This document shows positions 3,604-18,856 of a stretch of 18,856 nucleotides of DNA, piece by piece. Both the position numbers and the translations under genes were made by a program. The notes under the pieces are model-generated. The model had not been told where the DNA came from and ran no database searches. It saw nothing but the letters and a program-made list of their open reading frames with translations. Within the stretch, counting starts at the first letter, position 1. The number at the start of each line of letters is the position of its first letter. This stretch comes from a virus: UHGV virus genome UHGV-1698770; one strand, written 5' to 3'.

Positions 3604-3975
3604 ATGAAAGCTAAGAGTGCAAAAGACTTTTATTGCTTCCTACAATCCTATATCAATTCCGTGCAAAATGGTGAAAGGTACAACCTTAATGATGTTATCC
3701 CAACACCTTTGACATGGAGACTCAGTAAATGGCCTGAAGAAGATATTACACCAACAATCGAACAACGCACCTACAAACCCGAAATCAATATTCCAGACTC
3801 TGAGAATCTATTATATCCAATGTTCCATATTGTTGGTCTTGGAAGATTCCTTATGGATATCCAGTATGTAATTGGTAAAGGTTATAAGGTCAAAGGTATC
3901 GTTGTTGGTGATGTATCTCCGCATCACAAAGGTTATTTTAGACTAAACGCACATTTAGAGGCTAAAAAGAAATGA
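3604..3975 (+). CDS. hypothetical protein; stand-alone paralog of the N-terminal domain of the downstream Ig-repeat protein
   Basis: 123 aa, ATG with AAGGA RBS. Shares KAK..DF, WPE(E/A)DI, LLY and FLMD(I/L)QY blocks with residues 1-120 of 3972..5357 (about 30 percent identity by eye). Confidence 0.75.
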   Translation: MKAKSAKDFYCFLQSYINSVQNGERYNLNDVIPTPLTWRLSKWPEEDITPTIEQRTYKPEINIPDSENLLYPMFHIVGLGRFLMDIQYVIGKGYKVKGIVVGDVSPHHKGYFRLNAHLEAKKK

Positions 3976-5357
3976 TTAAAGCAAAGACTTACCCAGACTT
4001 CAAAGAGTTTGTAAAAGGTTTCGTTGCAAACGTAAAGGCTGGTAAGAGGTATGATTTTAGAACATATCAAGAAGCTATTTTACCACTTACCTATAGTTCG
4101 TATTGGCCTGAAGCTGATATTGCAGAAGTTAAGGAGTTTGATTACGAGCCAGACTATAAAGTTCCATTTAGTGATGAGTTGCTTTACAGCATTGGCGCTC
4201 AAATGAGAACTTCTGACTTCTTCATGGACTTACAATATGCAATTATCAATGGTAAAGACGTTGATACAGTTTATTGTGAATGGCTGGCAAGAGTTAAACC
4301 GTTCTCAATGTTGAATGCTAAGTTGAAGGATGCTATCAAGCCACCATCAATCACTCAGCAACCAACCAATCAAACAGTAAATGAAGGGGGTACACTTACC
4401 CTGAGCGTTATTGCAACTAATGCCACTGGATATCAATGGAAAAAGGGTGGTGAGGATATCACCAGCGCCACATCTGCAACCTACACAAAACAGTCTGTAG
4501 CACCCTCTGATGCTGGTTCTTATACTTGTGTTGTGTCTGGAGAGGCTGGGACAACTGTTACCTCAGATGCGGCAACAGTTACTGTCAACGCACTGCCTGT
4601 TATTACACAGCAACCTTCTAGCCAGACTATCAATGAGGGTGGAAACATCAGCTTGGGAGTGACTGCAACGGGTGCAACGGGTTACCAGTGGAAGAAAGAT
4701 GGCTCTGACATTCCTTCGGCTACAGAGGCTACCTATAGCAAGTCTGGTGCGCTGCCAGCAGATGCAGGTTCATACACTTGCGTTGTAACAGGTGCAGGTG
4801 GTTCTGTTACTTCTAGCCCTGCAACTGTCACAGTAAATGCTTTGCCAGTTATTACCAAGCAGCCAACAAATCAGGTAGTTAATGAGGGTAACTCTTTGAC
4901 ACTGAGTGTTGAGGCTACAGGTGCAGAAGGTTACCAATGGAAAAAGGACAATGTGAACATCCCTAGCGCAACTGGTGCGACTTACACGAAAGCTAACGCA
5001 GTTCCTGCCGATGCTGGTTCCTATACCTGTGTAGTTACTGGTGCAGGTGGTACAACAGCCACATCTAACGCAGCAACAGTTACTGTGAATGCACTTCCGG
5101 TAATCACTCAACAGCCAACCAATCAAGAAATCACTGAAGGTGAGACCTTAACGCTGAATGTTGTGGCAACAGGTGCGACAGGTTACCAGTGGAAGAAAGG
5201 TGAGGAAGACATCCTCGATGCAACTACTGCAACTTACACCAAAGAAGGTGCAACCACTGCTGATGCAGGAAACTACACTTGTGTAGTGACTGGCGCAGGT
5301 GGCTCTGTAACATCTAATGCGGCAACAGTTACAGTTAACCCAGCAGGGGAGGCATAA
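3972..5357 (+). CDS. Ig-like repeat protein: N-terminal domain plus four tandem ~83-aa Ig-like domains (Hoc-like decoration-type architecture)
   Basis: 461 aa. Four repeats of ITQQPTNQ..NEG..L.L.V.ATGA.GYQWKK.G..I..AT.ATYTK....DAGSYTCVVTGAGG..TS..ATVTVNALPV, with the W and Y-x-C signature of Ig folds. No signal peptide. Start overlaps upstream stop (ATGA). Confidence 0.9.
   Translation: MIKAKTYPDFKEFVKGFVANVKAGKRYDFRTYQEAILPLTYSSYWPEADIAEVKEFDYEPDYKVPFSDELLYSIGAQMRTSDFFMDLQYAIINGKDVDTVYCEWLARVKPFSMLNAKLKDAIKPPSITQQPTNQTVNEGGTLTLSVIATNATGYQWKKGGEDITSATSATYTKQSVAPSDAGSYTCVVSGEAGTTVTSDAATVTVNALPVITQQPSSQTINEGGNISLGVTATGATGYQWKKDGSDIPSATEATYSKSGALPADAGSYTCVVTGAGGSVTSSPATVTVNALPVITKQPTNQVVNEGNSLTLSVEATGAEGYQWKKDNVNIPSATGATYTKANAVPADAGSYTCVVTGAGGTTATSNAATVTVNALPVITQQPTNQEITEGETLTLNVVATGATGYQWKKGEEDILDATTATYTKEGATTADAGNYTCVVTGAGGSVTSNAATVTVNPAGEA
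4341..5340 (+). repeat. four tandem direct repeats of 249-252 bp encoding the Ig-like domains
   Basis: Repeat unit starts near 4344, 4596, 4845 and 5097; diverged but clearly alignable at nucleotide level; locally higher GC than surroundings. Confidence 0.85.
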
Positions 5358-5821
5358 TGCAACTCTCACAGAAAGGTTTAGAAGCTATTAAGTTCTTTGA
5401 AGGTCTTAAGCTAGAGGCTTACGAAGATTCTGCTGGAATCCCCACAATTGGGTATGGGACAATCCGTATTGCTGGCAAACCTGTTAAGATGGGTATGAAG
5501 ATTACCGCTGAACAAGCTGAACAGTATCTTCTCGCAGATGTTGAAAAGTTCGTTGCAGCAGTGAACAAAGTCATCAAGGTTCCAACTTCTCAGAACGAGT
5601 TTGATGCACTTGTAAGTGAAACATACAACATTGGCATCACGGCTATGCAGGACTCCACATTTATCAAGCGCCACAATGCTGGTAATAAGGTTGGTTGTGC
5701 AGAAGCTATGCAGTGGTGGAACAAGGTCACAGTCAAAGGTAAGAAGGTCACTTCAAACGGCCTGAAAAACAGACGTAGAATGGAAGCTGACATTTATCTT
5801 GACAGTGTATATCCAAAGTAA
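5357..5821 (+). CDS. lysozyme, glycoside hydrolase family 24 (T4-lysozyme-type endolysin)
   Basis: 154 aa. N-terminal FEGLKLEAYEDSAGIPTIGYGT carries the Glu, Asp and Thr catalytic positions of phage lysozymes; C-terminal NGLKNRRRMEADIY block. ATG overlaps the upstream TAA (TAATG) with GGGGAGG RBS. No N-terminal TM/SAR segment. Confidence 0.92.
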   Translation: MQLSQKGLEAIKFFEGLKLEAYEDSAGIPTIGYGTIRIAGKPVKMGMKITAEQAEQYLLADVEKFVAAVNKVIKVPTSQNEFDALVSETYNIGITAMQDSTFIKRHNAGNKVGCAEAMQWWNKVTVKGKKVTSNGLKNRRRMEADIYLDSVYPK

Positions 5822-10995: not shown

Positions 10996-11006
10996 AATAT
11001 CTTAAG

Positions 11007-11037
11007 AGCCTCCTTAATTGGGGGCTTTTTAATTTTT
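11007..11037 (+). terminator. rho-independent terminator closing the plus-strand block
   Basis: AGCCTCC-ttaatt-GGGGGCT stem (one G-U pair) followed by TTTTTAATTTTT. Confidence 0.75.
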
Positions 11038-11640
11038 ATAAAATTTTATCGGTTGTCCCAACCTCTGGGTCACCATTATATGTGAACAAAATATCTACCC
11101 TTCTTAACAACCTTCTTAATCTTACTCTCTATATATAGTTATATAGTACTATATAGTATCTTAGTAACTATCTAGTGGTCTTAATAGCCCTCTGTATAGC
11201 CCTTCTAAATAGCCATCTAAACACTCTTCTAACAAGCCTTCTAAACAACCTATACAATCATCTTAACCATCTCTCTACACACTCTTAGAAGCTCCTATAC
11301 ACCTCTTAATCTCTATGTAAGCTATGATACCCTCTATAGGTGTTCACTAGGTATTACTAAGCCTCTATATAGACTGTTTTAACAAACTTAACAGGAATAT
11401 CTTCACAGACCTTATCTCACAAGGTCTAACACGGTACTAACAAGGTATCTTATAAGCCTGTTTATGCCTGTATTTTTAAAAGACTGTCTAGGTAATTATT
11501 CAGAATTTTAAAATTTTTATAAAATAGGACTATCAAGTCATTTTTTAGGGTCTTTGAAGGAACTGAAAAATATCTGTCTAGGATGTATATCTGCTTGGTA
11601 GCCCTTAACAGCTCCCTTACAAGTACTTTGCAAAATTTTA

Positions 11641-11880
11641 AAATATCCTTAACAATCTCTTAACAGTTCTCACATTTTCTTAACAACTCTTCAAAGGTCT
11701 TAACAGATTCTTAACAGAACTAACAAGGCTGTAACAAGTTCTTAACAGTCGATACATGGTCTTTACAGAGTCTTAACAGATGACTAACAAGAGCTAACAA
11801 GTTAATTTTTAAGAGTTATTTTGTTAAGATAATTAACAAGTTCCTAACAAGTATTTAATCTTTTTAACAAGCTATTAACA
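11641..11880. repeat. array of at least 15 TAACA(A/G)-core motifs (TCTTAACAG / CTAACAAG) phased at 10-11 bp
   Basis: Core starts at 11650, 11661, 11681, 11701, 11712, 11721, 11732, 11743, 11774, 11785, 11795, 11834, 11845, 11865, 11876; successive differences are 9-11 bp or multiples. No ORF in any frame. Confidence 0.7.
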
Positions 11881-12062
11881 TGGTCACTATCTCTTTCTTA
11901 TCGTTCCCTTTCCCTCTTAGTGATTCTTTAAACATACCTCTTAAAAGCTCTCTATAGCTCTTTATAAGCTCTTTTAAGCCTCTTCCTAGTATCTATCCCC
12001 CAACTGTACAAACACCTCTTTATAGAGCTTTACAGGAGCTTTTAAGGCTATGTCAAAGACTC

Positions 12063-12170
12063 TTACAAGGCTTTTACGTGGTCTTAACAGAGATTTAACA
12101 AGGGGCTAACAAGTCTCTAACAAGCATAACTATGTAGGGATTGTTAAGAAATTGTTAAGAAAATGTTAAG
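12063..12170. repeat. second cluster of the same motif: direct copies then three inverted copies (TGTTAAG)
   Basis: Direct copies at 12085, 12096, 12107, 12118 (11-bp spacing); inverted copies starting 12142, 12153, 12164 (11-bp spacing); orientation switches around 12125-12140. Confidence 0.6.
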
Positions 12171-12181
12171 GGGGCTAGCAT

Positions 12182-12233
12182 TTACGTAACTTTATAGCCT
12201 TTTTTACGTAACTTTGAAGTAACTTTATAGCCC
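12182..12233. repeat. direct repeat TTACGTAACTTTATAGCC x2, second copy with internal GTAACTTT reduplication
   Basis: Copies at 12182-12199 and 12205-12233. Confidence 0.5.
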
Positions 12234-12598
12234 CTATAACATGCTTTTTAGTGACTAGCAAGGGGGTTGTTTAACCATTCACAAGGTACTAACCAGCCTA
12301 TAAGCTTACACCCTTATAAGATTCTTTTAAGCCTCTATAAAGCCCTGTAAAGAGCTTTTTAAGATAGGTTAATGCAATCCCTTAAGTTAGGTTGATAAGG
12401 CTGTTATAGAGCTTTATAGAGCGTTTAAATGGGCCATCCCCTTTCTGGGGTTATTGGCTTTTATTTAAGTTGATTTGATAAGAGGTTATAGAGTAGACTA
12501 TAGAGTTATTGTTTTTAAGGTATGAGATAGGTTCTATCGAATCAGTGGGAAGATTCTGGAAAGGTGAGGGAAAGGGATTGTATAAGGATTCAATAGAC

Positions 12599-12653
12599 GT
12601 AAAAAAGCCCCTTTAAATAGGGGCTGTTGAGGTATCTGGGGCTATTTAGCCCC
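12599..12653 (-). terminator. tandem hairpins forming the intrinsic terminator of the minus-strand block
   Basis: On the minus strand: GGGGCT-aaat-AGCCCC (12638-12653), then AGCCCCT-atttaa-AGGGGCT (12606-12625) followed by TTTTTT. Confidence 0.75.
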
Positions 12654-13003: not shown

Positions 13004-13241
13004 GCCTTTTTTCGTTGTATTTTGTAAGAATCTCACAAGATAGAACATCGTACTTTGTAACCGCGTTGCCTTTGTCGAGGTCAAAAAAGCCAAACGCTTT
13101 ACCATCTTTGAATCCGACAACTTCGTAAGACTCTTTGATGATTTCACCATTGAACAAATCGCTTTCGATACGGTGGAATAATGCTACATCTTCTTTGTCA
13201 GTTGCAATTTGTAAAAGTGTGGTTAATTCTACGTTTTCCAT
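12978..13241 (-). CDS. hypothetical protein (87 aa)
   Basis: ATG at 13241 after cassette A2; its stop overlaps the -10 of cassette A1. Confidence 0.7.
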   Translation of the reverse strand: MENVELTTLLQIATDKEDVALFHRIESDLFNGEIIKESYEVVGFKDGKAFGFFDLDKGNAVTKYDVLSCEILTKYNEKRLATYANMQ

Positions 13242-13333
13242 CTTGATAACTCCAGTTTAGGACTTTATTTAGTGGGGAAGGTCATTCCCTCCCCGTTGAT
13301 TGACAATTTACAGACTTTTAAGTGTCTCGTCAA
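13242..13333 (-). repeat. type A cassette (TTGACG-N17-TAAATT, stem-loop, GGAG RBS)
   Basis: Hairpin GGGGAAGG-tcatt-CCCTCCCC at 13274-13294; -10 at 13305-13310; -35 at 13328-13333 lies inside the upstream gene's 3' end. Confidence 0.7.
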
Positions 13334-13838
13334 TATCTTTTTCAATATCTTTTAAAGTTTTTTCTAAGTTCTTGATATTGAACGTTAAACCTTCACCAAG
13401 AGTCTTAGAGTAACCACTAGGACGTAAATTATACAGTTTAATTTCTTCCACTTTAAAGAGACTAACTAACTCACCGTTTACATCATAAGCCATTGAAACA
13501 GTATTTGCAGGTGCATTGTAAAACTTGTTTAGTGACTTGATAGAGCGTTCATAAGCCATTTTATAACCGTTTAAAAGGTTTTTAACGTGGTTGTGAACGT
13601 TTTTACACTCATCTAAGTAAATCTCTAAGAATAACGGTAATAATTCCGCTACAGCTTGCATAAAGTGAGAGACTACAACGGTTGAGACATTACGACGATG
13701 AACGTAATAAGCCCCGTTTTCTGATTTGGTGATTGTTGCGAAATGTACCCCATTACAACGGAATTCGTATGTATCTTTTACAGGCTTAGACATTACAGCA
13801 TTTGAACGAATGAAGTTGATAGCTTGAAATTTGTTCAT
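13308..13838 (-). CDS. hypothetical protein (176 aa)
   Basis: ATG at 13838 after cassette A3 with GGAG RBS. Confidence 0.75.
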   Translation of the reverse strand: MNKFQAINFIRSNAVMSKPVKDTYEFRCNGVHFATITKSENGAYYVHRRNVSTVVVSHFMQAVAELLPLFLEIYLDECKNVHNHVKNLLNGYKMAYERSIKSLNKFYNAPANTVSMAYDVNGELVSLFKVEEIKLYNLRPSGYSKTLGEGLTFNIKNLEKTLKDIEKDIDETLKSL

Positions 13839-14791: not shown

Positions 14792-15334
14792 TTAGAAAAA
14801 GCTCTTTAAATCCTCTTCTGCGATGTTTCCTGTCAGTGTATCCATGATGTCACAAAAAACCTGAATACTGTCCGACTGTTGAACACTTTTAGCAAGTAGT
14901 TCTAATGTCTCATCAAGATAGTTCATATTTGGGTTATCCAGTGAAGGAAGACAAAAAGGTGAATACATAGCGTTAAACTCTGTTGTATAGACCTTTTTAA
15001 TCCAGTTTACATCAAAGTACTCTGTAAAACTTGCTACACTCGACATATTATCACAAGAATAATCATCATTTAGCTCATCATCTGGAATATCGAGTTCTAA
15101 GATAACAATATTTTGGGTTTTCATCTGGAAGGCCGCCGTAATAGTGGCGTTCCCTAGAGCTTGCTGAATGCCCTCCGATGTTATCTCTTCATCATCGTCG
15201 CCATAGATTTTATTTTCTGGATACACGTAAAAATTGCCGTCCATATCCGAACAATTCCATGCGCCTGATGGTTTATCACCGTTATTAATCAGGTTGAGGA
15301 AATTTTCTTGAGTAGTTCCGTGATAACATTTCAT
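14792..15334 (-). CDS. highly acidic hypothetical protein (180 aa)
   Basis: ATG at 15334 after cassette B1. Hand count about 19 Asp + 13 Glu versus 8 Lys and no Arg; runs DDDEE and DIPDDELNDDY. Confidence 0.75.
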   Translation of the reverse strand: MKCYHGTTQENFLNLINNGDKPSGAWNCSDMDGNFYVYPENKIYGDDDEEITSEGIQQALGNATITAAFQMKTQNIVILELDIPDDELNDDYSCDNMSSVASFTEYFDVNWIKKVYTTEFNAMYSPFCLPSLDNPNMNYLDETLELLAKSVQQSDSIQVFCDIMDTLTGNIAEEDLKSFF

Positions 15335-15422
15335 TTTTGAATCTCCAGTTTAGGATTGAGTAGTAAAGCTCTTTATCTGGGGCTTACTTTATCGAACTAT
15401 AAGCCCCTTGTAAAGTGCTTTA
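15335..15422 (-). repeat. type B cassette (stem-loop GGGGCTTA/TAAGCCCC, near-palindrome TAAAGTGCTTTA, GGAG RBS)
   Basis: Conserved unit TTTTGAATCTCCAGTTTAGGATT(G/T)AGT(A/G)GTAAAGCTCTTTATCTGGGGCTTA..TAAGCCCCTTGTAAAGT. Hairpin 15379-15407. Confidence 0.7.
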
Positions 15423-15757: not shown

Positions 15758-15958
15758 TTTGTTATTTTTGACAACTTTTAAAACTGCAAGATAGCCTAAG
15801 CAATAAGAATCACCGAAGAGAGTCCTACCCATGAAAGAATCCTCTTTGATATCCTTTGCAGTGACAGTTTTTTCTACGCCGTGGGAAAGGACTATATCAC
15901 CAACTTTGATATCTTTGATGTGTGTAGTTTCAATGGTTAAACCATTAATAATAGCCAT
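15755..15958 (-). CDS. hypothetical protein (67 aa)
   Basis: ATG at 15958 after cassette A5; stop lies inside the palindrome of cassette B2. Confidence 0.6.
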   Translation of the reverse strand: MAIINGLTIETTHIKDIKVGDIVLSHGVEKTVTAKDIKEDSFMGRTLFGDSYCLGYLAVLKVVKNNK

Positions 15959-16050
15959 TTTTGAATCTCCAGTTTAGGACTTTATTTAGTGGGGAAGGTC
16001 ATCCCCTCCCCGTTGATGTATAATTTAGCCTATCTAAAAATCAGTGTCAA
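15959..16050 (-). repeat. type A cassette (TTGACA-N17-TAAATT, stem-loop, GGAG RBS)
   Basis: -35 at 16045-16050 (perfect TTGACA), -10 at 16022-16027, hairpin about 15991-16011. Confidence 0.75.
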
Positions 16051-16060
16051 CAAAAATTTT

Positions 16061-16465
16061 TTATAGTTCTGCATAAATTGCATCGCAGATATTACGGAAA
16101 TCGTGATTTGCCAAATTACGCTGCAACCAAGTGGCGAAAAAGTCAGCGATTGCAAAGTTAGCATCATACTCGACAGATAACCACACTTTAACAGCAAATC
16201 GGAACATTTTCAAATCTAACTCTTTATTCATTACCTTAGATTTGCCTAACATGTCGGCCATTTCATGTTGTGCACCGTCTAGCGTGATACCTGCTGCAAC
16301 GTCAGTCAATGAGTTTTTTACGCTTTCAACGTCTAAGATAACACTTTGAATCTTCCCAATAATGTTTTGCAGTGTTTCATCTGGTGCTGATGACGTGATA
16401 ACATTAATCCGGTTAACGGTCAAACGTGCTTTTAAAATTGATAATTCACGGTTATTAATAGCCAT
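16061..16465 (-). CDS. hypothetical protein (134 aa)
   Basis: ATG at 16465 (MAINN...) with TTGGAGAAC RBS; the track start at 16480 is a TTG inside the cassette. Confidence 0.7.
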   Translation of the reverse strand: MAINNRELSILKARLTVNRINVITSSAPDETLQNIIGKIQSVILDVESVKNSLTDVAAGITLDGAQHEMADMLGKSKVMNKELDLKMFRFAVKVWLSVEYDANFAIADFFATWLQRNLANHDFRNICDAIYAEL

Positions 16466-16554
16466 TTTTAAGTTCTCCAATTTAGGATTTAGTGGTAAAG
16501 CTCTTTATCTGGGGCTTACTTTATCGAACTATAAGCCCCTTGTAAAGTACTTTA
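16466..16554 (-). repeat. type B cassette (stem-loop GGGGCTTA/TAAGCCCC, palindrome GTAAAGTACTTTAC)
   Basis: 14-bp perfect palindrome at 16542-16555; hairpin about 16511-16538. Confidence 0.7.
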
Positions 16555-16849: not shown

Positions 16850-17008
16850 TTATTTTGACAGTTCACTAATTAAGACATCAAAGATTATATCATTATCTGC
16901 TACAGTTGCAACACCAGTGATATAATCAATTTCTAGGATAACAACAACTTTCGTACATAAACCGTCATCTATATCATTCCAGACAACTTTATCACCTGCA
17001 CAAAACAT
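16850..17008 (-). CDS. small hypothetical protein (52 aa), below the ORF-track length cutoff
   Basis: ATG at 17008 directly after a full type A cassette with GGAG RBS; reads MFCAGDKVVWNDIDDGLCTKVVVILEIDYITGVATVADNDIIFDVLISELSK; stop 25 nt before the next gene's start. Confidence 0.45.
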   Translation of the reverse strand: MFCAGDKVVWNDIDDGLCTKVVVILEIDYITGVATVADNDIIFDVLISELSK

Positions 17009-17101
17009 TTTCAGAATCTCCAGTTTAGGACTTTATTTAGTGGGGAAGGTCATTCCCTCCCCGTTGATGTGTAATTTAATCTATCTAAAAACCAGTGTCA
17101 A
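17009..17101 (-). repeat. type A cassette (TTGACA-N17-TAAATT, stem-loop, GGAG RBS)
   Basis: -35 at 17096-17101 overlaps the stop of the upstream gene; -10 at 17073-17078; hairpin GGGGAAGG..CCCTCCCC. Confidence 0.75.
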
Positions 17102-17430
17102 CAGTTTTGTTTTCGTTTGCTCAATTCTTGAACAATTACAGCGTAGTAGTCTTTTAAGTCACTGACATTTAAAGCATTTATCAGAGAATTATAATCATCA
17201 ACTAACTGAAAATTATCTTTGAAGATGTCACTTATCTGATAGGTTTTCGCTTTATATCTGAAGCTCATCTCTAGCCGCTTTATTTGCTCATCACTTAAAC
17301 GCCCTAGAAAGCTCTCTACAAGGTTATTGCTAACTTGCTGTGTGATTGCCTTATTTGCTAGATTATAGGCTTTATATGCCTTATATAGCGCGAAAATGGC
17401 AATGATTGCAGTGATACCAGTCATTAACAT
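17098..17430 (-). CDS. hypothetical membrane-anchored protein (110 aa), one N-terminal hydrophobic helix
   Basis: Start overlaps the upstream gene by 7 nt; N-terminal MLMTGITAIIAIFALYKAY is hydrophobic. Confidence 0.65.
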   Translation of the reverse strand: MLMTGITAIIAIFALYKAYKAYNLANKAITQQVSNNLVESFLGRLSDEQIKRLEMSFRYKAKTYQISDIFKDNFQLVDDYNSLINALNVSDLKDYYAVIVQELSKRKQNC

Positions 17431-18036: not shown

Positions 18037-18327
18037 TTTGTTAATTTTCAGCTTTGCATAACTTCTCATTGTACGAATGGGGGATGTTAATGCTACGCGT
18101 CTAATGTATGCCTTTTTCGTGTATACATTTGTCTTCCCGATAGTGTTTACACATGTAAAAAGGTTTATCGGTGAATTTTTTAACTTCAACTGTTTATCAA
18201 CCTTCACGCCCCACCTTACAGCAGATTGTTTTCCGTTGTCAACCACTTTCCCGCATAACTTTTTAGCCATAACGCGAGCGTCATCACGAGTCTTTGCAGT
18301 AATTACAACGTTTTTGATAATAGCCAT
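18034..18327 (-). CDS. hypothetical basic protein (97 aa)
   Basis: ATG at 18327 (MAIIKNVV...) with TTGGAGAAC RBS; the track start at 18342 is a TTG inside the cassette. Confidence 0.65.
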   Translation of the reverse strand: MAIIKNVVITAKTRDDARVMAKKLCGKVVDNGKQSAVRWGVKVDKQLKLKNSPINLFTCVNTIGKTNVYTKKAYIRRVALTSPIRTMRSYAKLKINK

Positions 18328-18416
18328 TTTTAAGTTCTCCAATTTAGGATTGAGTGGTAAAGCTCTTTATCTGGGGCTTACTTTATCGAACTATAAGCCC
18401 CTTGTAAAGTACTTTA
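18328..18416 (-). repeat. type B cassette (stem-loop GGGGCTTA/TAAGCCCC, palindrome TAAAGTACTTTA 18405-18416)
   Basis: Near-identical to B1 and B3. Confidence 0.7.
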
Positions 18417-18797
18417 TTTGTTAATTTTGAAGATAGTTACATAACCATCGCTGCCGATGATTTGTGATGCTCCAGCTTTTTCTACTTGATAGCCCATATT
18501 TTCAAGATGGTAAACAGCATCATCATAACCATATGCGCCGCCCTGATAACGTCTCTTATCACATCTTACTAATACCTTTCCACGTCCTGCCAGTGCATTT
18601 AGTACGACTTTTTCACTTGAAAGTGTACCATCTAACATGGTTGCCGTGTAATGGTTGATTCTATTCCCGTTTACATCATACTTAAAATTGAATGCGTGAA
18701 CAACGATAATGTTACCTTTAAAATTCTCATCAAGTGACTTCTCCAGTGCGTTGCGAAAGTTGTCTTTGTTGATGAATTTAGGTGCACGATATGCCAT
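18414..18797 (-). CDS. hypothetical protein (127 aa)
   Basis: ATG at 18797 after cassette A7 with GGAG RBS. Confidence 0.7.
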   Translation of the reverse strand: MAYRAPKFINKDNFRNALEKSLDENFKGNIIVVHAFNFKYDVNGNRINHYTATMLDGTLSSEKVVLNALAGRGKVLVRCDKRRYQGGAYGYDDAVYHLENMGYQVEKAGASQIIGSDGYVTIFKINK

Positions 18798-18856
18798 TTT
18801 TGAATCTCCAGTTTAGGACTTTATTTAGTGGGGAAGGTCATTCCCTCCCCGTTGAT
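18798..18856 (-). repeat. type A cassette, truncated by window end
   Basis: TTTTGAATCTCCAGTTTAGGACTTTATTTAGTGGGGAAGGTCATTCCCTCCCCGTTGAT, matching the A2/A6 copies. Confidence 0.7.

Follow-up and report, generated by a model that had tools for sequence, protein, structure and literature searches.

The DNA analysed here, a stretch of 18,856 nucleotides from UHGV virus genome UHGV-1698770 (referred to throughout as the window), contains between positions 11041 and 12600 a gene-free region on which the genes of both sides converge. At its centre lies a 579-bp element (11597-12175) that corresponds to the direct terminal repeat (DTR) of Felix O1-type phages. On the left, the genes of one genome arm are transcribed towards the genome end and stop at an intrinsic terminator on the + strand (11004-11039), which consists of a hairpin at 11004-11029 plus a T run and has an annotated homolog in ASO1A; on the right, the early genes of the other arm end on the − strand at one or more intrinsic terminators (12596-12653, hairpin 12606-12625), likewise annotated in ASO1A. 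The DTR is bordered by a left unique non-coding flank of 557 bp (11040-11596), which follows the left DTR in the virion, and by a right unique non-coding flank of about 420 bp (12176-12596), which precedes the right DTR.

The first-pass annotation of this DNA had described 11041-12600 as free of open reading frames (ORFs) of 60 codons or more, bounded by terminators from both sides and depleted of G on the plus strand, and all of this holds. The longest ORF in any frame is 37 aa, and GC skew on the + strand runs from −0.38 to −0.13 over 11.0-12.2 kb (G-poor) before becoming positive beyond 12.2 kb. Yet a lack of long ORFs is unremarkable in AT-rich DNA (33% G+C): no stop-free run exceeds 65 codons, as against a longest run of 79 ± 17 in shuffled sequences, 21% of which are equally short, and the ORF-free status was accordingly rejected as a signal in itself. 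Stop triplets are enriched in the region (263 versus 227 ± 10, a count reached by none of 500 shuffles).

The identity of the element follows from related genomes. The region is matched by 256 phage records, nearly all of them Felixounavirus, and 198 of these extend over 80% or more of its length with identities of 80-95%; it is unannotated in most, and several records begin exactly inside it. Escherichia phage Pr103Blw (MW481326) carries at both ends an annotated 581-bp "short direct terminal repeat", called by PhageTerm (PMC8303462), and blastn of both Pr103Blw ends converges on 11597-12175, a single repeat copy between left-arm and right-arm genes. The DTR is present once in the window because the assembly collapsed it. 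Exact repeats at both ends are found in three records from other laboratories, E9 (580 bp), NBEco005 (651 bp) and SeKF_63 (613 bp), all of which start with GCCCCCTTAACA and end with TGTTAAGGGCTACC, at the same borders as Pr103Blw. The NBEco005 record (MN994499.1) is flagged as circular although its 651-bp repeat stands at both ends, so that the repeat is counted twice in the record.

Experimental and read-based end mapping points the same way. The ends of the close relative UAB_Phi87, determined by Bal31 digestion and run-off sequencing, yielded a 608-bp DTR; two specific fragments were lost under Bal31, the restriction pattern was unaltered by heating, and cohesive ends were absent (PMC4837284). 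The same border anchors lie 614 bp apart in the UAB_Phi87 record (JN225449). PhageTerm called a 613-bp DTR in Ro111lw (PMC6454146), and short terminal repeats had been deduced earlier from the genome size of Felix O1, in its genome paper (PMC3185647). Permuted ends arising from one initiation cut, which would mark a headful pac site, were not found in the related records, which have exact repeats with fixed borders. Sequence comparison thus establishes the region as the concatemer junction, i.e., the point at which the two physical ends of a Felix O1-type (Felixounavirus) genome are joined, and places the borders of the DTR. Transcription of each genome arm runs towards its physical end, which accounts for the convergence of the terminators and for the change in strand composition. 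The assertion that no annotated feature accounts for the region is correct for most records but not for MW481326, which annotates the terminal repeat, nor in view of the ends mapped in UAB_Phi87 (PMC4837284). That the region is the Felixounavirus DTR is therefore already known, from the literature and from at least one GenBank annotation.

The DTR is filled with copies of a short core motif. Of the 42 copies of TAACA[AG] in the whole 18.9-kb window, 24 lie on the + strand of 11041-12600, as against 1.8 ± 1.3 in dinucleotide shuffles; neighbouring copies are separated by gaps of 9-11 bp in 12 cases, where shuffles give 0.01. The consensus of 28 aligned cores is (c)(T/c)TAACA(A/G)(g), and the DTR as a whole holds about 28 (C)YTAACAR cores, mostly direct, which keep phase at 10.4 bp over the approximately 510 bp that they span. 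The densest group, array A (11606-11881, + strand), consists of 18 direct (c)(T/c)TAACA(A/G) cores located at 11606-11876 with successive gaps of 11, 33, 11, 20, 20, 11, 9, 11, 11, 20, 11, 11, 10, 39, 11, 20 and 11 bp. These 18 cores are phased at approximately 10.3 bp (Rayleigh R = 0.83 at 10.3 bp), and out of 2000 random placements not one gave an R as high. In the array, Tandem Repeats Finder detects periods of 11, 31 and 62 bp; the higher-order unit of 31/62 bp indicates that the array grew by duplicating a unit of three helical turns. Array A also contains an inverted pair, TTGTTAA-GATAA-TTAACAA (11820-11838), with perfect 7-bp arms, which is unchanged in nearly all of the 10 phages aligned and may be a distinct dimer-binding site.

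To the right of array A, the centre of the DTR (11882-12062) is C/T-rich and carries a CTCTATAG / CTTTATAAG / CTTTTAAG family. Array B (12063-12123, + strand) follows with six direct cores at an 11-bp step, including the cluster at 12085-12118, and keeps the helical phase of array A, from which it is 187 bp (18 turns) away. Array C comprises three inverted TGTTAAG copies at 12142, 12153 and 12164 (12142-12170), which abut the right DTR border. All three core clusters fall within the DTR. The first-pass annotation had placed TAACA(A/G) cores on one face of the helix, a second cluster at 12085-12118 and three inverted copies beyond it; the cores are coherent at 10.3-10.4 bp and the positions are exactly as given, and the shuffle control that it proposed yielded neither a comparable number of cores nor comparable 9-11 bp gaps.

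The two borders of the DTR are built alike and face each other. The left border, ATCTGCTT/GGTAGCCCTTAACA (11589-11610, + strand; here and below the slash marks the border), would be nicked between 11596 and 11597 to give a mature 5' end at 11597, and the DTR ends of Pr103Blw, E9, NBEco005 and SeKF_63 map here. The right border forms a unit with array C (12141-12175), which reads GCCCCCTTAACATTTTCTTAACAATTTCTTAACAA on the − strand; its putative nick lies between 12176 and 12175, with the 5' end of the other mature strand at 12175, and four records start exactly at this position. The nonamer CCCTTAACA has only two copies in the 18.9-kb window, where 0.19 would be expected: one at 11602 (+) and one at 12172 (−), both a few bases inside the DTR borders and both reading inward. 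Written 5' to 3' on the strand that carries the future mature 5' terminus, the borders are ...ATATCTGCTT/GGTAGCCCTTAACAG and ...GTAAATGCTA/GCCCCCTTAACAT; they have in common 5'-TGCTW/G(N2-4)CCCTTAACA, followed by one or two more cores at 11-bp steps, on opposite strands. The polarity switch seen in the first pass is therefore real and coincides with the two DTR borders: on the DTR reading, this "orientation switch" is the mirror symmetry of two cut sites. With their TGCTW/G contexts mirrored on opposite strands, the borders have the layout that staggered nicking and subsequent fill-in would call for.

Across 10 phages from three genera the border sequences do not vary, 21 columns being invariant at the left border, and they are recognisable in the Erwinia phages of the genus Kolesnikvirus, where GTATATCTGCTT is also kept in phiEa104. 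The record of Erwinia phage Roscha1 and a Kolesnikvirus contig in IMG/VR start at the homologous right border. The record of Erwinia phage vEam_W_25 (PP079183.1) stops at the homologous left border and then has AGATCGGAA as its last 9 bases; this is a remnant of an Illumina adapter and so marks a physical DNA end. Two other border features were considered as signals and set aside. The left-border ATCTGCTT resembles ATCTGTT, the class II/concatemer-junction pause signal of T7, but has one extra base; that signal tolerates no change, and the present phage is without a T7-type polymerase. Under a wedge model, curvature in the window is greatest in a 126-bp segment that starts at 12126 (12126-12252) and straddles the 12175 border, but the maximum lies elsewhere in five of seven relatives, and so no claim is made for curvature.

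The layout of the arrays is conserved beyond the immediate relatives. When ten phages of the genera Felixounavirus, Suspvirus and Mooglevirus are aligned, columns of the TAACA core are 90% invariant, compared with 48.5% for spacer columns (Fisher p = 7e-16, a value that overstates independence because the sequences are related). Four indels fall inside the arrays and measure 11, 22, 22 and 11 bp, i.e., about one or two helical turns; the 49-bp insertion of NBEco005 lies in the C/T-rich DTR centre. Across 11 phages, whose DTRs measure 571-652 bp, the best period over the whole DTR is 10.36-10.46 bp with R of 0.70-0.81, figures given without a null of their own. In the ten-phage alignment, mean identity to the window is 0.91 and 0.78 for the non-coding flanks versus 0.87 and 0.72 for the adjacent genes. 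In the Erwinia phages only 85 bp can be aligned, at about 75% identity, and the layout is kept: GTATATCTGCTT at the left, direct cores with 9-, 11- and 20-bp gaps, a second direct cluster, and three inverted cores in 11-bp steps at the right. The comparison with related phages that the first-pass annotation had called for thus finds the motif family and its layout in four genera of Ounavirinae (Felixounavirus, Suspvirus, Mooglevirus and Kolesnikvirus). A pattern scan of IMG/VR for three phased TTAACA was dominated by chance matches and returned one relevant contig, the Kolesnikvirus contig that starts at the same border.

The flanks carry motif families of their own. The G-poor + strand of the left flank contains ATATAG three times (11133, 11141 and 11151), CTTCTAA three times (11202, 11226 and 11238), CTCTATA, a few TAACAR cores and an AT-rich tract (11495-11530); the ATATAG and CTTCTAA families had been noted before and are both present. 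The right flank, G-rich on its + strand, contains TTACGTAACTTT repeats, a hairpin (12436-12451) and TATAGAG, which occurs four times and is the CTCTATA of the left flank read on the opposite strand. CTCTATA has ten copies in the region and one elsewhere in the window; the left copies stand in one orientation and the right copies in the opposite one, the flip falling near 12020. A reported pair of TTACGTAACTTTATAGCC copies stands as one copy only, the second being imperfect and split into TTACGTAACTTTGAAG and TAACTTTATAGCC. In the Erwinia phage phiEa104, the right DTR flank (2290-2640 of the piece examined) has at least 14 TTAGAAG, of which the CTTCTAA of the window's left flank is the reverse complement; flank motif families therefore vary by genus, while the TAACA cores do not.

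The papers on Felix O1 and UAB_Phi87 could identify only the large subunit of the terminase, TerL (PMC4837284 for UAB_Phi87). The window encodes a 123-aa protein with a match to Pfam DUF5681 (1975-2346, − strand) that we propose as the missing small terminase of Felix O1-type phages and as our candidate for the protein that binds the arrays. The DUF5681 protein is conserved in all Ounavirinae. In Felixounavirus its gene heads the transcription unit leading to TerL, approximately 7 kb upstream of TerL, with a gene for a Ro60-like RNA-binding protein and a tRNA cluster in between. In four of six distant metagenomic relatives the DUF5681 gene lies directly upstream of, or overlaps, the TerL gene, TerL having been called by Pfam terminase domains in two of the four and by PHROG 38 in the other two (E = 5e-72 and 2e-99); a looser form of this arrangement is seen in phages Barba5S and phiPMW, whose TerL operon has the gene at its head, 0.7-1.4 kb before TerL. 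Such a place before TerL is the classical position of a small-terminase gene. The other candidate, a 66-aa ORF directly upstream of TerL, was rejected: its product is acidic and matched no known family.

The DUF5681 protein has an invariant N-terminal arm, FKKGQSGNPSGRPKGSRNK, in which K12, G13, N17, G20, R21, P22 and N27 are the invariant residues. The AlphaFold model (mean pLDDT 71) shows a disordered arm and, after it, a helical hairpin. Searches of Pfam, NCBIfam and the Protein Data Bank (PDB) gave the protein no sequence match beyond DUF5681; for the arm, the sole PDB match is the second AT-hook of DNA-bound HMG-I(Y) (2EZD), GRPKGSKNK versus GRPKGSRNK, with E = 0.24. AT-hooks occupy the minor groove of A/T tracts and the core of the arrays is built around TTAA; we infer from this that AT-hook-like arms of the DUF5681 protein could read the phased cores. 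The likeness to the HMGA (HMG-I/Y) AT-hook (PDB 2EZD/2EZE), in which GRPKGSKNK lies in the A/T minor groove, has its limit in the number of arms, one for each DUF5681 subunit as opposed to three in each HMGA chain. The gene lies close to a 471-aa protein (478-1893, − strand) with DUF2828/DUF7788 and PHROG 850 ("RNA-binding protein") matches, which adjoins tRNA-Glu and tRNA-Pro (151-312) and is probably the Ro60-like protein tied to the tRNA cluster by the Bas63 study.

The observations above lead us to propose a model for the generation of genome ends in these phages. The most likely role of the phased cores would be that of a landing pad, on one side of the helix, for a packaging protein that acts as an oligomer. 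The likely binder is the DUF5681 protein, whose GRPKGSRNK arm would contact the TTAA core in the minor groove. Terminase would then probably nick the + strand between 11596 and 11597 and the − strand between 12176 and 12175, in each case on the 5' side of the repeat, and both 3'-OH ends would be extended by strand displacement in the manner of T7, so that each of the neighbouring genomes receives a full repeat. Such a scheme of nicking and strand displacement is generally accepted for T7-type phages (PMC10438801).

Of the systems with which this arrangement can be compared, the T7 junction is the closest. There, too, a short exact terminal repeat is present once per concatemer junction, its second copy being made during packaging, and dense arrays of 6-7-bp motifs are found; the 160-bp terminal repeat of T7 is said to have been reported by Dunn and Studier in 1983 with arrays of CCTAAAG-type short repeats (SRL/SRR) in and beside it. 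The present junction differs from that of T7 in that most cores lie inside the repeat, are locked to a 10.4-bp helical period and are mirrored at both borders, and in belonging to a myovirus without a T7-type RNA polymerase, in which the pause signal ATCTGTT is absent. In the pac site of phage P1, four and three TGATCA/G hexamers flank the cleavage region and serve as binding sites for the terminase's recognition subunit. Clusters of a hexamer to either side of the cleaved DNA are similar to what is seen here, but P1 packages by headful with permuted ends and Dam-regulated hexamers, whereas here two precise cuts 579 bp apart would give exact ends. Lambda cosB contains the sites R3, R2 and R1 for gpNu1 plus an IHF bend and thus resembles the present arrangement, at which binding is assumed, in having several small-terminase sites beside the nick sites, one of them inverted; lambda, however, has cohesive ends, nicks 12 bp apart and three 16-bp sites, as opposed to about 28 short cores and, in UAB_Phi87, no cos ends. 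Finally, the parC site of plasmid R1 has ten 11-bp iterons in two sets of five, to which ParR binds cooperatively. The direct repeats with an 11-bp step are a common feature, and in R1 they are bound on one face as a large nucleoprotein scaffold. Here, by contrast, par genes were not found among the window proteins scanned, the phage family is described as lytic and the arrays coincide with the genome ends.

Taken as a whole, the reading of the region as a DTR at a concatemer junction, with phased cores as the landing pad of a packaging protein, staggered nicks at the borders and the DUF5681 protein as binder, has in our estimate a probability of roughly 0.6. Several points weigh against it. 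The borders in the window were transferred from relatives at 80-93% identity rather than read from its own virion DNA, and borders called by PhageTerm may be a few bases off, which makes the exact nick positions provisional. The nick chemistry, the binding of protein to the cores and the identity of the binder are inferred steps, and the accessible literature gives no sequence requirement within the repeat for DTR phages. As regards the DUF5681 protein, two of the six distant gene contexts, on short contigs, have no TerL next door; the AT-hook match is short and not statistically significant; a Foldseek search with the predicted helical hairpin returned no significant match to known small terminases; and comparable phased arrays were not found near the DUF5681 genes of other phages. 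A stronger form of the model is more tentative, and we regard it as possible though doubtful: the DTR would be a purpose-built scaffold, in which a DUF5681 oligomer with AT-hook-like arms on about 28 TTAA-centred cores facing one side of the helix wraps some 500 bp and offers the mirror border sites (TGCTW/G...CCCTTAACA) to the large terminase for staggered nicking.

The first-pass annotation had offered a replication origin, a partition site, a packaging site or an array for a DNA-binding protein as explanations. Packaging, or more exactly the genome terminus, fits, the phased motifs lying inside the DTR. Partition is not supported: par families of the parC/parS type were absent from the 20 window proteins scanned against Pfam and PHROGs, and Felix O1-type phages are described as lytic. 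Were the cores iterons of a replication origin housed in the terminal repeat, a phage or host initiator would bind them cooperatively and open the AT-rich tracts at 11495-11530 and 11628-11645, and the role of the DTR in packaging would be independent of them. This reading is compatible with packaging and would account for helically phased direct repeats beside AT-rich tracts, which are typical of origins, as well as for the conservation of the motif in four genera and the change of sign in GC skew. We consider it unlikely, however, as no DnaA box was found in 11041-12600 (allowing up to one mismatch) or near the region, and ten neighbouring proteins are without a Pfam family and match only PHROGs of unknown function, none of them matching a known initiator. 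Moreover, the cores, at 6-9 bp, are far below classical iterons of 17-22 bp; the skew switch is explained by convergent transcription; and mirror-image copies exactly at the DTR borders are not predicted by an origin.

Somewhat less probable is that the arrays act as an end-cap, coated by an injected or early phage protein or by a host nucleoid protein, that protects the ends from RecBCD or organises the DNA during ejection or concatemer formation. Both genome ends would carry the arrays since these lie within the DTR, the 5' termini themselves begin with the core motif, and phasing on one face over about 500 bp would suit a filament or a wrap; yet neither a candidate end-binding protein nor any similarity to known end-protection systems was found, and inverted copies exactly at the cut sites are better explained by the enzyme that makes the ends. 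We give about as little credence to the view that the repeats are neutral, a 31-bp unit having been amplified by slippage and unequal crossing-over while the DTR works by homology alone and terminase reads a few border bases. The 31- and 62-bp periods do point to a history of duplication, and both copy number and DTR length (571-652 bp) differ among isolates, but neutrality is difficult to reconcile with the contrast between core columns (90% invariant) and spacers (48.5%), with four array indels that are all 11 or 22 bp, or with the survival of the layout in Erwinia phages whose surroundings have diverged past easy alignment. Least probable by far, in our judgement, is an abundant non-coding RNA of which the repeats would be elements. 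The DTR does have folding z-scores of −3.1 (+ strand) and −2.4 (− strand), but this signal arises because the direct arrays can pair with the three inverted cores, a symmetry at the DNA level; in addition, Rfam gave no match at E ≤ 1 within 11041-12600, promoter-like sites (9 versus 7.7 expected) are not above chance, and the flanking terminators both point into the region.

Elsewhere in the window, two families of 64-99-bp cassettes precede most of the small − strand early genes between 12903 and 18856. Twelve copies were listed, e.g., 13237-13335, 15324-15422, 15954-16052, 16456-16554, 17005-17103, 18318-18416 and 18793-18856. Each consists of a hairpin followed by a Shine-Dalgarno sequence and start codon, with TTGACA in about five copies, and the cassettes correspond to repeats of 57 bp and 39 bp noted in the genome paper of Felix O1 (PMC3185647). 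One cassette family and the DTR flank share the word AAGAGCTTT. On the left arm, a 461-aa protein with four immunoglobulin-like domains is encoded at 3972-5357 (+), directly upstream of a phage lysozyme gene (5357-5821).

The internal architecture of the DTR, the symmetry of its borders and the DUF5681 candidate were not found described in the searchable literature, which excludes most subscription journals, and the anatomy of the arrays and the candidate binder appear to be undescribed so far. A specialist would not be surprised by signals at the ends of a DTR phage; what the anatomy adds is a model of unusual explicitness that can be put to the test. Typing and biocontrol of Salmonella and E. 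coli make wide use of Felix O1-type phages, and most records of these phages leave this stretch blank and open the genome arbitrarily; with the ends at 11597 and 12175, both annotation and genome orientation can be corrected. The recognition and duplication of DTRs is understood only in outline, and mainly in T7; the conserved mirror-image cut signal, combined with the phased array and a small-terminase candidate, provides a concrete model open to testing by mutation. If the DUF5681 protein is the small terminase, a role would be assigned to a domain found beyond Ounavirinae, e.g., in Rheinheimera and Pseudomonas phages. Should the scaffold model be true, it would represent a mode of packaging-site recognition undescribed for any phage, and would make the duplication of the terminal repeat in DTR phages directly testable.

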